Source: a virus
Taxonomy: Duplodnaviria > Heunggongvirae > Uroviricota > Caudoviricetes
IMG/VR virus record: IMGVR_UViG_2690316115_000029
Strand: one strand, 5' to 3'
DNA length: 3,773 bases
Shown: positions 1 to 3,255 of the stretch, piece by piece
How the letters are laid out: every line of letters starts with the position of its first letter
Numbering within the stretch: position 1 is the first letter of the stretch
Notes under the pieces: generated by a model
What the model saw: the letters and a program-made list of their open reading frames with translations, nothing else
The model's database searches: none
What the model was told of the DNA's origin: nothing
Position numbers and translations under genes: made by a program

Positions 1-1230
1 ATGAGCAGAGCACTTAACAAACTGAGCGATACACAGCTGAGGAAAATCAACGGCACACCCGCCCAAAAAACAGCCTTTCTTAATGACGGTGGAAACCTGA
101 GCGTCAGGCATTCAACCAGTGGCCTTTTAACCTGGTATTTCACTTACAGGGCCGGAACGGGAAGGGGGGCACCACCGGAACGCATTAAGCTGGGAAATTA
201 TCCTGATCTGAGCCTGAAATCAGCCAGGGAAAAAGCCGCCCAGTGTCGCGCATGGCTGGCAGAGGGGAAAAATCCACGTCATGAGCTTAATTACACCGTA
301 CAGGAAGCGTTAAAGCCGGTAACGGTTGGCGATGCGCTCACCTACTGGCTTGAGTCGTACGCAAAGGAAAACCGCGTGGATTATGCCGCCCTGAAAAAGC
401 GCCTTAATAATCACGTAATACAGCACATTGGTGCTATGCCGCTGGATAAATGCGAGCTACGGCACTGGCTGGCCTGTTTTGACCAGGTGGCAAAGCGAAC
501 GCCTGTTACTGCCGGATTCTTGCTACAGACGTGCAAACAGGCGCTTAAGTTCTGCCGGAGGCGGCGCTATGCAATCAGCAACGTTCTTGATGATATGAGT
601 GTGGCGGACGTTGGGAAAAAACCGGATATAAGCGAGCGTGTCTTAAGCACCAAAGAACTTGGCGAATTATTGCAGGCACTGGACAAAAAAATATTTTCCC
701 CTTACTACGTCGCACTAATCCGCCTCCTGATTGTTTTCGGATGCCGGACGGTAGAACTGAGGTTATCGGAGATCAGCGAGTGGGATTTTACCGAAATGCT
801 CTGGACCGTGCCGAAAGAACACAGCAAAACGAAGGTGGCAATATTCCGGCCCATACCGGAAGCAATACTGCCGTTCGTCACGCAGCTGGTGGAGCAGAAC
901 AGGCACACGGGCTTATTGCTGGGGGAAGTGAAACAGGAAACAAGCGTGTCGCAGTACGGCAGATTAGCGCACAGGAGGCTAAAACACCCTCACTGGTCAC
1001 TGCATGACATCCGGCGCACCTTTACAACGATGCTGAACGATTTAGGCGTGGATCCTCACGTCGTGGAGCAGCTTACAGGTCATCAGATGCCAGGGATGCA
1101 ACGAGTCTATAACCATTCCCGTTATCTGGATGCGAAACGTGACGCGCTGGATATGTGGACGGAGCGGTTAGGGATACTGGCGGGAACACATGAAAATGTA
1201 ACCACATTGCCAATAGCCAGAGAAATATAA
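1..1230 (+). CDS. int: Tyrosine-type site-specific recombinase (integrase, P4-like domain architecture)
   Basis: 409-codon ORF from the track, stop TAA at 1228-1230. N-terminal arm-type region (LSDTQLRK...WYFTYRAG...KLGNYPDLSLKSAREKA...WLAEGKNP) resembles integrase N-terminal DNA-binding domains. C-terminal catalytic motifs are visible: GCRTVELR (box I Arg), HDIRRTF (His-x-x-Arg), LTGHQ, and VYNHSRY (nucleophile Tyr region). The ATG is at window position 1, so the true start and any upstream att site or promoter cannot be judged. Confidence 0.93.
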   Translation: MSRALNKLSDTQLRKINGTPAQKTAFLNDGGNLSVRHSTSGLLTWYFTYRAGTGRGAPPERIKLGNYPDLSLKSAREKAAQCRAWLAEGKNPRHELNYTVQEALKPVTVGDALTYWLESYAKENRVDYAALKKRLNNHVIQHIGAMPLDKCELRHWLACFDQVAKRTPVTAGFLLQTCKQALKFCRRRRYAISNVLDDMSVADVGKKPDISERVLSTKELGELLQALDKKIFSPYYVALIRLLIVFGCRTVELRLSEISEWDFTEMLWTVPKEHSKTKVAIFRPIPEAILPFVTQLVEQNRHTGLLLGEVKQETSVSQYGRLAHRRLKHPHWSLHDIRRTFTTMLNDLGVDPHVVEQLTGHQMPGMQRVYNHSRYLDAKRDALDMWTERLGILAGTHENVTTLPIAREI

Positions 1231-1257
1231 TTTTTTTTGCGATTTTTCAGGATGCGG

Positions 1258-1317
1258 ACAACGTGAAACAACGAGACACAACGACGAACAACAAGGAACA
1301 AAATGGAACAACGGGTT
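1258..1317. repeat. Six tandem 10-bp direct repeats, consensus ACAACGnGnA, in exact 10-bp register
   Basis: Read directly: ACAACGTGAA, ACAACGAGAC, ACAACGACGA, ACAACAAGGA, ACAAAATGGA, ACAACGGGTT starting at 1258, 1268, 1278, 1288, 1298 and 1308. The array begins 28 bp after the int stop. Function is unknown. Confidence 0.8.
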
Positions 1318-1332
1318 AAAAATCAGCCATCG

Positions 1333-1470
1333 TAATAACCATTTGATTTTTATAGGTGTACTGTTTTTTTATACACTGGCGAATCACTCTTAAAAATATG
1401 TAAAAAAGGCGTAAAAGTAAAATTTTATGCCTTTGCATCATAATGAATTAAAAGAGTTTTTATTCTCATT
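1333..1470 (+). promoter_or_regulatory. AT-rich putative promoter region for the alpA-like gene (not mapped)
   Basis: Strongly AT-rich stretch between the repeat array and the alpA leader. It contains TTGATT at 1343-1348, several TATA-like hexamers, and an IHF-consensus-like match (AATCAA-N4-TTA on the minus strand, 1336-1348). No -35/-10 pair with canonical spacing could be fixed by eye. Confidence 0.3.
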
Positions 1471-1513
1471 CCCCCTGCTTCTGTAAAACGACCGCCGCCA
1501 GTGTTTGCCATTC

Positions 1514-1566
1514 CACAAACACCCTGACACAATCCGACACAACCCAACCCAATAATCCACCCAATG
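1514..1566 (+). repeat. CA-rich, G-poor leader with GACACAA direct repeats 10 bp apart, upstream of the alpA RBS
   Basis: GACACAA occurs at 1526-1532 and 1536-1542. CCCAAT occurs at 1548-1553 and 1560-1565. Only 3 G in 1511-1570. Lies directly upstream of the AAGGGGG Shine-Dalgarno of the alpA-like gene. Confidence 0.6.
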
Positions 1567-1595
1567 ACTCTTTAAGAAACAACAAAGGGGGAATT

Positions 1596-1784
1596 GTGTT
1601 AAGCACAGATCGCTTTATACGTGAAAAAGAATGTCAGCAACTTACAGGCCTGAGCCGCTCATGTCGGTACCGCCTGGAAAAAGCCGGACAATTCCCATCA
1701 CGGCGTAAGCTGGGCGGTCGTTCCGTTGGCTGGTCTTTATCCGAAGTTCTGGCATGGAAGGACAGCTGCGAGGCAGTTCACTAA
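1596..1784 (+). CDS. alpA: AlpA-family prophage regulator / excisionase-like helix-turn-helix protein
   Basis: 62-codon ORF with GTG start at 1596, preceded by a strong SD (GGGGG at 1587-1591, 4-nt spacer). Stop TAA at 1782-1784. Sequence carries the AlpA/Vis-type pattern: HTH QQLTGLSRSCRYRLEKAGQFP followed by RRKLGGRSVGWSLSEVLAW. Position immediately downstream of an integrase fits this family. Confidence 0.85.
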   Translation: MLSTDRFIREKECQQLTGLSRSCRYRLEKAGQFPSRRKLGGRSVGWSLSEVLAWKDSCEAVH

Positions 1785-1836: not shown

Positions 1837-3255
1837 ATGAATACTGGATATTCTCCCGAACAAGGGCGGGGCTTCGTTCGTCCTGAAAAACAGAATCTGC
1901 AAAATTTTGCCGAAATTATTCCGGTTATTTCCGGCCTTACTGGCGGGAGTGAAACCAATATTGTTAACGCCAGAGCGTTGCAGATGTTTGATGATAAAAA
2001 GGGAGTAAATTTAACTTACACCCCTGACGGCAATCAGAATATGAGCATTATCTCTGAGTCAGGTTTCTACAAACTAATAAAAACAAAAAGCGCCCCGTTG
2101 CCGGAGCGCCTTTGTGAACAATTAACCAACTGCGCAAAAAATGAATCTGAGCAGTGGGATTATATCAACCATGTGGAGAAGCGCCACAATTGCCGAATAA
2201 CGGGCAAAACAAAGGCCACCCGCTACGGTGGCCCCTCGACACAAGCTACACGTTATCCCCAACGCATGAGCATTGCCAACAATGCCACATTTGCGGCTGG
2301 TGGGCAATGCAATCAGTCTGGTTCAGTTCGTTGCCATACCTGCAATGAGCGCTTTTCCCTGTACTCTTTAAGGAATTGCTCAAGGGCAAAAGCACATGGC
2401 GCGAATCTTTCTGATTCATGCTCTATCTTTCTGCGCCGTCTTTTCCGTGCCGGTGATAATGTTTTGGTCAATTCTTTATCGGTCATTGTGTTGTCCTGCA
2501 TAGCAATGCGCCGTAATACCTTACACCACGGCGCTGATGGTGATTACTCTGGTTCTTTGGTCTTGCGGCGCTGGAGTTCTTCACGTGCGACAGTGACGAG
2601 CTGCCCGATCTCCTCGGCGGCTTTGATTCCGAGTTTTTCCACCTGCGCCAGTGCATCGAGCGAAGAAACCAGGGGATTTTCTCCACTTCCTTCTGCCTGG
2701 CGCCGGGCGATCTCACCGCGTACAGCCGTAACTATAAAATTCGCTTTAGTTTCCCCTGGCTGTAGGGATGCCTCAATGCCACTCACTACTTCATGTGGAA
2801 ATCTGGCATTCAGTTGCTGTGACTTATTGTTAACAGAACTCCTGGACATGTTTGCACCTCCCATTAATAACGGGATGCAGTGTAATACAAAAGTGAATAC
2901 CAAAAAAGACTTGAAATGGTATTCACCTAAATGTAATGTGAATACCACAAGTGCTGATACATGCAATTCAGCAATTGAAACGACGAAGCCCCGCACTGTT
3001 GGAGCAGTAACGGGGCTTCTAACCACCAACGATAACGAGAGTATCGAGGTAGCTATGAGAAATCATACCACACACCCGCAAGGGCGGGACTCGCACAACC
3101 TGAATAAATACATCTGGCGTTTTATCGCCCTGAGCACTGCACAACCGCGCGTGATTACCATTGAGGCCACCAGCGAACAGGAAGCACGCCAGCAATCTCC
3201 GGCTGGCTGCGTGATGGTATTTGCTGCCCGTATTCGTCAGGGGGTAGGCTTATGA
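1837..3255 (+). CDS. Long open frame with Bro-N-like N-terminal domain; only the first ~110 codons look coding (probable truncated gene or remnant)
   Basis: 472-codon ORF from the track, ATG 1837 with no convincing SD. Residues ~50-100 (FDDKKGVNLTYTPDGNQNMSIISESGFYKLIKTKSAPLPERL) resemble the conserved core of Bro-N antirepressor-type domains (D-D-x-K-G ... G-x-Q-x-[ML]-x-[IV]-I-x-E-S-G-[LF]-Y-x-L-I ... S-x-P). From about codon 120 the translation is Ser/Cys/Arg/Ala-rich low complexity. It runs antisense through a minus-strand terminator (2203-2235) and two better-supported minus-strand genes. Confidence 0.3.
   Translation: MNTGYSPEQGRGFVRPEKQNLQNFAEIIPVISGLTGGSETNIVNARALQMFDDKKGVNLTYTPDGNQNMSIISESGFYKLIKTKSAPLPERLCEQLTNCAKNESEQWDYINHVEKRHNCRITGKTKATRYGGPSTQATRYPQRMSIANNATFAAGGQCNQSGSVRCHTCNERFSLYSLRNCSRAKAHGANLSDSCSIFLRRLFRAGDNVLVNSLSVIVLSCIAMRRNTLHHGADGDYSGSLVLRRWSSSRATVTSCPISSAALIPSFSTCASASSEETRGFSPLPSAWRRAISPRTAVTIKFALVSPGCRDASMPLTTSCGNLAFSCCDLLLTELLDMFAPPINNGMQCNTKVNTKKDLKWYSPKCNVNTTSADTCNSAIETTKPRTVGAVTGLLTTNDNESIEVAMRNHTTHPQGRDSHNLNKYIWRFIALSTAQPRVITIEATSEQEARQQSPAGCVMVFAARIRQGVGL
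2203..2235 (-). terminator. Rho-independent terminator for leftward transcription
   Basis: GGCCACC (2214-2220), loop CGCTAC, GGTGGCC (2227-2233). On the minus strand the stem is followed by TTTGTTTTG (plus-strand AAAACAAA at 2206-2213). No T-run follows it on the plus strand. Confidence 0.6.
2313..2501 (-). CDS. Small basic hypothetical protein (57-62 aa), second gene of the leftward cassette
   Basis: Track ORF MQDNTMTDKELTKTLSPARKRRRRKIEHESERFAPCAFALEQFLKEYREKRSLQVWQRTEPD. It starts 42 bp downstream of the Arc-like stop and ends about 80 bp before the minus-strand terminator. The internal ATG at 2486 has an AGGA 7 nt upstream and may be the real start. Against it: weak RBS at 2501 and several rare codons (AGA, CGG, ATA, TTA). 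Confidence 0.3.
   Translation of the reverse strand: MQDNTMTDKELTKTLSPARKRRRRKIEHESERFAPCAFALEQFLKEYREKRSLQVWQRTEPD
2544..2849 (-). CDS. Arc/Mnt-type ribbon-helix-helix DNA-binding protein (putative repressor), 101 aa
   Basis: Start chosen at ATG 2849 (residue 61 of the 161-codon track ORF) because GGGAGGTG lies 5 nt upstream; the track start at 3029 is TTG with no RBS. Product MSRSSVNNKSQQLNARFPHEVVSGIEASLQPGETKANFIVTAVRGEIARRQ... matches the Arc/Mnt N-terminal pattern (beta-strand N-x-R-[FW]-P-x-E-V, then two helices; compare P22 Arc NLRWPREV). Stop TAA at 2544-2546. Confidence 0.7.
   Translation of the reverse strand: MSRSSVNNKSQQLNARFPHEVVSGIEASLQPGETKANFIVTAVRGEIARRQAEGSGENPLVSSLDALAQVEKLGIKAAEEIGQLVTVAREELQRRKTKEPE
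2881..2946. promoter_or_regulatory. Operator-like repeats in the divergent control region: GTGAATACC twice direct, once inverted
   Basis: GTGAATACC at 2893-2901 and 2938-2946; its reverse complement GGTATTCAC at 2918-2926. TGTAAT at 2881-2886 and 2932-2937. The nearest copy is 44 bp upstream of the Arc-like start codon. Promoters for both divergent units must lie in 2850-3054, but no hexamers were confidently assigned. Confidence 0.55.
2985..3019. other. Long imperfect hairpin in the divergent intergenic region
   Basis: GAAGCCCCG (2985-2993) pairs with CGGGGCTTC (3011-3019). Inner ACTG (2995-2998) pairs with CAGT (3005-3008). No clean U-tract on the plus strand; only a weakly T-rich tail on the minus strand. 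Confidence 0.45.
3055..3255 (+). CDS. Small hypothetical protein (66 aa), candidate first gene of the rightward operon
   Basis: ATG 3055 with GAGG 5 nt upstream. Product MRNHTTHPQGRDSHNLNKYIWRFIALSTAQPRVITIEATSEQEARQQSPAGCVMVFAARIRQGVGL. Its TGA stop (3253-3255) overlaps the next ATG (3252) in an ATGA arrangement. It is the 3' end of the 472-codon frame, so it may be an artefact of that open frame. Confidence 0.35.
   Translation: MRNHTTHPQGRDSHNLNKYIWRFIALSTAQPRVITIEATSEQEARQQSPAGCVMVFAARIRQGVGL

Follow-up and report, generated by a model that had tools for sequence, protein, structure and literature searches.

Recombination directionality factors bind head to tail on direct repeats placed one helical turn apart, and similar arrays of Apl, Cox and Vis sites are found at promoters far from the attachment site (Cutts et al. 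2020, PMC7498355). The Apl protein of phage 186, with seven operators at pR-pL and five at attP, needs at least 3 adjacent sites; in P4 the directionality-factor sites overlap the int promoter (PMC7498355). In the KplE1 prophage, the sites of the directionality factor TorI, set by mutagenesis, have the cores GTTCG, GATCG and GTCCG, and three of the sites stand 10 bp apart beside the intS promoter (PMC2951348).

Among phage-inducible chromosomal islands of Gram-negative bacteria, the reference element is EcCICFT073 (Fillol-Salom et al. 2018, PMC6092414). Overexpression of its AlpA protein alone leads to int-dependent excision and replication, and helper phages induce alpA; a PalpA-lacZ fusion is activated by AlpA in trans, and a Pint-lacZ fusion is unaffected by it (PMC6092414). 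In the Vibrio minimalist islands (PICMI), AlpA is needed for helper-induced excision and, supplied in trans, is enough without phage; the authors put it forward as an excisionase (PMC10803314). Helper induction is retained in EcCIMP1 when AlpA is missing (PMC11773190). For helper-embedded islands, a tandem 12-bp motif has been described, occurring once in each attP arm, co-oriented and at fixed distances from the core, the ligand being left between the Int arm domains and AlpA (Mageeney et al. 2023). AlpA is the master switch of EcCICFT073, which the searchable papers leave as regulator, excisionase or both, and no AlpA binding site or binding data for such islands were found in the searchable literature.

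The stretch of DNA analysed here (the window, 3,773 nucleotides, IMG/VR record IMGVR_UViG_2690316115_000029) carries, just after an integrase gene, a phased array of short direct repeats, which is compared below with these systems.

A six-unit array between int and alpA

The window belongs to a phage satellite of E. coli, being the left end of a phage-inducible chromosomal island of the EcCICFT073 type. Its int-alpA spacer was found in 163 of 5426 complete E. coli genomes, on the chromosome in every case. In strain 2017C-4173W12 the spacer is part of an island that measures about 11 kb and sits between roxA and phoQ; it contains genes for Int, AlpA, a YlcI/YnfO-like and an Icd-like protein, a RepA-type helicase, SSB, a major capsid protein and a head decoration protein. 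The assignment to the EcCICFT073 type follows because CFT073 has the same island at the same roxA-phoQ site; the annotated Int (WP_000085269.1) and AlpA (WP_000953274.1) are identical in the CFT073 and 2017C-4173W12 islands. Compared with CFT073, the window shows 21 nucleotide differences inside int, positions 1-2574 being 98.6% identical overall, and the 100 bases around the array are 100% identical.

Two genes frame the region of interest, both on the plus strand. The first, int (window 1-1230), encodes a P4-type tyrosine integrase, in which the Pfam domains Arm-DNA-bind_3, the N-terminal arm-binding domain, and Phage_integrase are recognised (PF13356, 5e-18; PF00589, 6e-17). The second, alpA (1596-1784), encodes a 62-residue protein of family PF05930 (E=3e-18), predicted to be an excisionase-type winged helix. 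The rest of the window offers a few separate observations. A 472-residue ORF at 1837-3255 is a read-through artefact: it runs across a Bro/AntA-like remnant, two genes of the minus strand (2313-2486 and the YlcI/YnfO-like gene, 2544-2852) and the Icd-like gene (3055-3255). Where the YlcI/YnfO-like gene and the Icd-like operon diverge (2879-2950), two copies of GTGAATACC and an inverted GGTATTCAC look like an operator for a ribbon-helix-helix-like protein. Directly upstream of the Icd-like gene, a strong hairpin lacking a T tract (GAAGCCCCGcACTG ... CAGTaaCGGGGCTTC, 2986-3020) might have a connection with the immunity RNAs known from such islands.

The array occupies positions 1258-1317 of the plus strand and is composed of six 10-bp units (GGACAACGTG AAACAACGAG ACACAACGAC GAACAACAAG GAACAAAATG GAACAACGGG), the proposed head-to-tail AlpA sites. 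ACAAC is read directly at 1258, 1268, 1278, 1288 and 1308, and ACAAA at 1298; 27 bases separate the first unit from the int stop codon (1228-1230). Tandem Repeats Finder detects two repeats of period 10, the first over 1258-1311 and the second at 1526-1553; an independent repeat search groups the units in one family (D1), with spacings of 10, 10, 10 and 10, plus a sixth related copy beside alpA. In order to evaluate these repeats statistically, chains of any 4-mer at periods of 7 to 14 were counted in 500 simulations from a first-order Markov model of the window. The six identical 4-mers at one fixed period are the longest such chain in the window, while the longest chain in the simulations was 4 (once), 3 (229 times) or 2. 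The array is real and far beyond chance.

The original prediction of six ACAAC-type 10-bp repeats at 1258-1317 is confirmed by direct reading, repeat search and simulations, as are their distance of 28 bp from the integrase stop, given the 27 intervening bases, and their place between int and an AlpA-family gene. It had also put the copies in exact helical register, facing the same side of the DNA: the exact 10-bp spacing stands, the common side does not. At 10.0 bp, against the roughly 10.5-bp helical repeat of B-DNA, the copies drift by about 85 degrees over five steps, and the sites trace a gently superhelical path, as described for excisionase filaments, rather than strictly one face. Two minus-strand ORFs overlap the array; they were ruled out as genes by the whole-unit 10-bp changes seen in relatives.

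The alignment of related int-alpA spacers, which had been suggested as a check, was carried out at two levels. In eight E. coli spacers, from four insertion sites, the phased ACAA cores are kept even where the linkers differ. A larger set was obtained by scanning IMG/VR with AlpA, which yielded 69 loci with AlpA 90-98% identical and 54 distinct 420-bp upstream sequences, from which 48 unique spacers were aligned. The array is kept in all 69 loci of the same AlpA type, and the 10-bp register is always retained. Five exact ACAA cores are present in 40 loci, six in 12, and six with one of them degenerate in 14; one locus (L066) has exactly one extra 10-bp unit, and copy number changes only by whole units. 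Over the 48 unique spacers, the ACAA columns are at least 90% conserved and the linker positions 10-30%, so that core and phase are conserved while the linkers drift. Besides the island-specific core, a C and flanking G/A are conserved in the units. This is the contrary of the free variation in repeat number or phase that had been named as the mark of a neutral microsatellite. In terms of the minimum of at least 3 adjacent sites known for Apl (PMC7498355), the window has six adjacent units, and its relatives five to six exact ones or six with one degenerate.

Attachment-site arms and covariation with Int and AlpA

When the island is set against the empty roxA-phoQ site of K-12, the att crossover core falls at about GGACATATTTAT (approximately 12620-12631 in locus L001; the array of that locus, at 14058-14117, is some 1.4 kb distant). 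Each island end has, about 80 bp further in, a direct-repeat module of about 75 bp, made up, in order, of three TTGT at exactly 10-bp spacing, GTGCAACGATC, and two tandem copies of GGTGTAGTTAAT. The P' module (L001 12712-12778, with TTGT at 12712/12722/12732) ends 22 bp before the int start, which is window position 1; the far (P) module (L001 23692-23758, with TTGT at 23692/23702/23712) is co-oriented with it. On the complementary strand the array unit reads as the arm motif, TTGTTYC, and the two have the 12-mer GTTTCACGTTGT in common, without mismatch; in the repeat search, the P' arm and the array accordingly appear as inverted repeats bracketing int (I1 and I2). When a position matrix, built from distal arrays only, was run over both strands of the island of about 11 kb, phased clusters were found only at the two arms, at the array and at the alpA-proximal positions 1526-1545. 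In both arms of L001, the recognition sequence of the array thus stands beside 12-bp doublets. The reading of the repeats as a binding-site array is supported by the conservation of core and register together with the presence of the same motif, as phased triplets, in both att arms.

The 12-bp doublets of the arms are likely to be four integrase arm-type sites: they covary with the Int N-terminal domain, and their layout matches that of the annotated P4 arm repeats. The covariation was followed in relatives gathered by searches for homologous proteins, with their encoding contigs, and from IMG/VR; the integrase genome scan gave one relevant locus (Shigella). Across these islands, the 12-bp tandem repeats track the N-terminal arm domain of the integrase. 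Integrases with LSVRHSTSG go with GGTGTAGTTAAT repeats, the LSVKYLTSG subtype with GGTGTAGTCACT or GGTGTAGTCATT, and those with IKHSK with TGTGTGGTCAGT or GTGCGGTCAGTG. In the LSVKYLTSG subtype GGTGTAGTTACT GGTGTAGTCATT is found in the far arm, at a distance of 15 kb from int, and both arms share a changed 3' end (A-C/T-T) with respect to the AAT of the window type. Simple linkage is insufficient to explain the association between Int and the 12-bp repeats, because the change is shared by an arm 15 kb away.

The 10-bp motif, on the other hand, tracks the AlpA allele. Cores were assigned by counting core 5-mers, of which each P' arm is enriched for a single one; counts of 6-mers shared between arms and spacers were swamped by AT-rich words. 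The GTTTC/GTTCC core (GTTYC) goes with the AlpA helix LSRSCRY of the window type; GTTCG, in four copies, with VCRTTRY, a helix shared by L012 and L014, which have different integrase repeats; GTTCA, in four copies, with ICRTTRY (L022); GTCTA/GTCTG with LCRATRF (L016); and GTCCG, in four copies, with LSRSTRF (L018). The sample is small, with five or six AlpA types, and GTTYC differs little from GTTCG. The arm core of each island reappears upstream of its alpA, mostly on the opposite strand, and the far arm of L012 contains three perfect TTGTTCG copies at 10-bp spacing. The two kinds of repeat vary separately: L001, L012 and L018 have the same Int 12-bp repeats with different 10-bp cores, and islands of the RHS and KYL integrase subtypes, whose 12-bp repeats differ, have one and the same array.

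Because the 12-bp repeats follow the Int N-terminal domain and the 10-bp motif follows AlpA, the doublets are best assigned to Int, and the 10-bp motif to AlpA, as putative sites of each. AlpA and Int had both been named as candidate ligands of the array; the covariation retains the former, whose allele the motif follows, and speaks against the latter, whose arm domain is followed by repeats of its own. It is very probable that the array is a site for an island-specific protein which also binds the arms, and this protein is probably AlpA.

The AlpA protein and the alpA promoter region

The sequence of AlpA matches PDB 8c3t, the solved 'AlpA family' excisionase of GIsul2. An AlphaFold2 model (pLDDT 87) shows strand, helix-turn-helix, beta-wing and helix in the same order as in excisionases, and its best fold match is again 8c3t (TM 0.83, rmsd 1.0), followed by the RdfS excisionase, Pukovnik Xis, TorI and BldC. 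AlpA thus models as an excisionase-type winged helix; for RdfS, BldC and Pukovnik Xis, head-to-tail binding or oligomerisation has been described. The Pseudomonas aeruginosa AlpA was rejected as a model, being a larger antiterminator with a C-terminal helix-turn-helix (DNA-contact residues 128-142) that reads a single GGGACG element.

According to the primer table of PMC6092414, the alpA-promoter lacZ fusion activated by AlpA (pJP2038) corresponds to window 1198-1653, and holds both the array and the repeats proximal to alpA. The Pint-lacZ fragment includes the P' arm triplet; since AlpA had no effect on this fusion, AlpA binding at the triplet, if any, does not alter int transcription.

The only sigma-70-like site found within 1100-1900 is a predicted alpA promoter at 1505-1533, plus strand (TTGCCA, 17 bp, TG-n-CACAAT), with a -35 hexamer invariant among eight relatives. 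In scans of the relatives, a promoter-like site immediately precedes the alpA-proximal array in L016 and L021; L012 and L018 gave none in this place. In the window as in the relatives, the predictions never rise above shuffled expectation, and the promoter positions are weak predictions. The proximal repeats (GACACAATCC GACACAACCC AACCCAAT, 1526-1553, plus strand) have an ACAA(Y) core in the orientation of the array and comprise the second period-10 repeat and the sixth D1 member; they overlap the predicted -10 and transcription start, with matrix hits at L001 14326 and 14336. The distal array lies about 190-280 bp upstream of the predicted promoter, and the distance of about 190 bp between its end and the predicted -35 is far for direct sigma-70 activation. 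Nineteen bp after the last array unit, a putative IHF site is found on the minus strand at 1336-1348, matching the IHF consensus WATCAANNNNTTR (plus strand TAACCATTTGATT); over the 48 spacers, conservation is at least 90% at the consensus positions of this site, with variation at its N positions. Further conserved blocks are present between 1340 and 1500, in a spacer that is AT-rich. GGTGTA at 1355-1360, considered as half an integrase arm site, was rejected, as it is not conserved in the 48 spacers.

Other elements were noted in the same spacer. An inverted repeat at 1408-1431 (GGCGTAAAA-N6-TTTTATGCC) is kept in relatives with base changes in its right arm, where a T-to-C change turns a G-T pair into G-C and a C-to-T change makes the outermost G-C pair weaker. 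A weak terminator following int, or an operator for a dimer, are possible readings of this repeat. A run of AACCC pentamers in the alpA leader (about 1541-1555) varies in length, L004 and L024 having two more units. In the equivalent int-alpA spacer, L012 (11292-11365) carries AATATC three to four times in 10-bp phase, and L021 (11476-11505) three copies of TATCACTA, another 10-bp phased repeat. In L014 (about 11995-12028) and L022 (about 8755-8790), where the int stop is overlapped by an additional ORF, a terminator-like hairpin stands directly before the alpA start codon and holds two copies of the island's own 10-bp motif.

The best explanation, held with moderate confidence, is that the array consists of six AlpA sites, on which a cooperative head-to-tail filament of the Apl/Cox/Vis/TorI kind is formed. 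AlpA monomers, one per 10-bp unit, would bind cooperatively head to tail and give a short, DNA-bending filament. As the strongest AlpA site of the island, the distal array would act as a high-occupancy operator for feedback on the alpA promoter region; a bend at the adjacent putative IHF site (1336-1348) could fold the filament toward the predicted alpA promoter, where AlpA may also occupy the two to three further ACAA(Y) units over the predicted -10 and start site. On the arm triplets, beside the integrase arm-type sites, AlpA would act as a recombination directionality factor and direct excision. We infer AlpA as the ligand because the array motif also flanks the attachment site of the island, and propose, along with it, filament formation and an autoregulatory, rather than another AlpA-dependent, role. 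The autoregulation of alpA is proposed tentatively as the role of the distal array, at somewhat less than even chances. Whatever this role, it is lineage-specific, because a distal array of the island's own motif is seen only in the window family and in L021.

It is unlikely, though conceivable, that the array is a landing pad for the helper, whose early Xis-/Cox-like activator would bind the phased repeats and switch on alpA. P4 offers the model: P2 Cox binds three 10-bp Cox boxes ahead of the promoter driving vis (PLL), and P4 has three tandem 10-bp repeats upstream of vis (9176-9205). These repeats ('ori type 2 repeats') are presumably the reverse complement of the P2 Cox box. The reading also agrees with the induction of alpA by helper phages (PMC6092414) and with the helper induction seen without AlpA in EcCIMP1. 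The GTTGT core of five array units shows a partial likeness to the lambda X1 site, a resemblance only. The array motif, however, is the island's own att-arm motif and changes with the AlpA allele within one host species; AlpA alone suffices for excision and reporter activation in the absence of helper, and the conserved blocks at 1340-1500 are equally good helper-responsive candidates. In a combined form, rated quite improbable, a helper Xis-/Cox-like early protein would nucleate on the array and the arm triplets, starting alpA transcription and excision, with AlpA then providing positive feedback. If true, helper entry at the array would supply the induction mechanism that has long been sought for Gram-negative phage-inducible islands, in direct parallel to P2 Cox on P4.

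There is a similarly small chance that the array serves another protein, either an island factor or a nucleoid protein, or acts mainly as curved DNA shaping the int-alpA spacer. The AT-rich spacer, its other conserved blocks and the IHF-like site are compatible with this, as is the binding of H-NS to the alpA promoter in Shewanella (PMC5148205). In a wedge model, which is indicative only, the array ranks at the 94th percentile of the window for predicted curvature, but 13% of same-base shuffles reach this value. The conserved C, the flanking G/A and the island-specific cores argue for base readout by an island-specific protein; as for another island factor, islands that have retained the array differ in their YlcI/YnfO-like and Icd-like genes nearby.

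An integrase function, in which the array would be bound by the Int N-terminal domain, either as a further cluster of arm sites or to autoregulate, is very improbable. Int does have an arm-binding domain, and lambda arm sites can be tandem at roughly 10-bp spacing. The array, however, stands about 1.4 kb from the att core, beyond the few hundred bp expected of arm sites, and its ACAAC is unlike the GGTGTAGTTAAT doublets, which hold the position of the annotated P4 arm repeats. It is the 12-bp repeats, including those of the unlinked far arm, and not the 10-bp motif, that change with the Int N-terminal domain, and in L001, L012 and L018 they stay the same beside different 10-bp cores.

Scarcely any weight is left for a neutral tandem repeat, origin iterons or an RNA element in the int 3' UTR: copy number does vary (five, six, one extra unit in L066) as slippage would give, but the conserved core with diverging linkers is the opposite of a young microsatellite, and the iteron-binding option of the original prediction is disfavoured by an array that stays unchanged while the replicases differ (RepA helicase, DUF927, D5-type primase) and by the EcCICFT073 origin, mapped elsewhere, 3' of the replication gene. 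The RNA element was dropped, since an Rfam scan of the region gave no match and RNA folding of both strands produced less structure than shuffles (z = +1.7 and +1.9). A Rho-utilisation reading was also dropped, on general grounds, the repeated core being without pyrimidine-C dimers.

With AlpA as the preferred ligand, the analysis yields candidate AlpA sites (three per att arm, six following int, and another two to three at the promoter of alpA), together with candidate integrase arm sites and a simple rule linking AlpA allele and site core. The candidate sites make a dual-role model of AlpA directly testable, and the rule could aid the prediction of cross-talk between islands and the design of reporters or engineered islands.

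Comparison with described systems

The array is of a known kind; that it is probably an AlpA operator, in the reference Gram-negative phage-inducible island, would not surprise a specialist. Lambda Xis and AlpA share the same fold class. The lambda X1-X1.5-X2 sites are likewise one turn apart, and are bound head to tail by three Xis monomers that bend the DNA (PMC7498355); Xis differs in binding one arm only and in having no known role at its own promoter.

The attP motif of the helper-embedded islands has the same architecture as the GGTGTAGTTAAT doublets. Its sequence is different, being called unique to helper-embedded islands, and 10-bp phased arrays do not appear in that paper (Mageeney et al. 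2023). While its ligand was left between Int and AlpA there, the 12-bp doublets of the present islands are assigned, by covariation, to Int as putative sites.

P4 resembles the island both in its protein and in its arms. Vis belongs to the AlpA family (PF05930, 1.7e-20; 42% identical), with the helix LSRSTIY, and acts as excisionase and regulator; doubled 12-bp repeats, annotated as arm repeats, are present in both attP arms. Beside those of the P' arm (L097 4013-3974, minus strand), the 10-bp phased series TCGTCC/TCTTCC/TTGTCC/AAATCC can be read. P4 differs in that vis is far from int, its immunity is RNA-based, and the array upstream of vis serves the helper Cox, not Vis.

Also comparable are 186 Apl and P2/HP1 Cox, which serve both as directionality factors and as regulators, and are cooperative, DNA-bending proteins with 10-11 bp direct repeats both at attP and at a distant promoter (PMC7498355). 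With respect to these, AlpA is reported as an activator of its own promoter region, and the six-site array is placed about 190-280 bp upstream, just after int.

In the arms, there is a likeness with TorI and KplE1, where a small winged-helix directionality factor acts on a three-site block between the att core and int. In K-12, the TorI sites of KplE1 (CPS-53) attL read CAGTTCGTCA TGGTTCGCTT CAGATCGTTG, and match the arm triplets of the islands in core, period, number and position. TorI differs from AlpA in not belonging to PF05930, showing a weak HTH_17 match only and 21% identity; it represses intS, whereas AlpA left Pint of EcCICFT073 unaffected. The available portion of the KplE1 study (PMC2951348) describes no second array upstream of torI.
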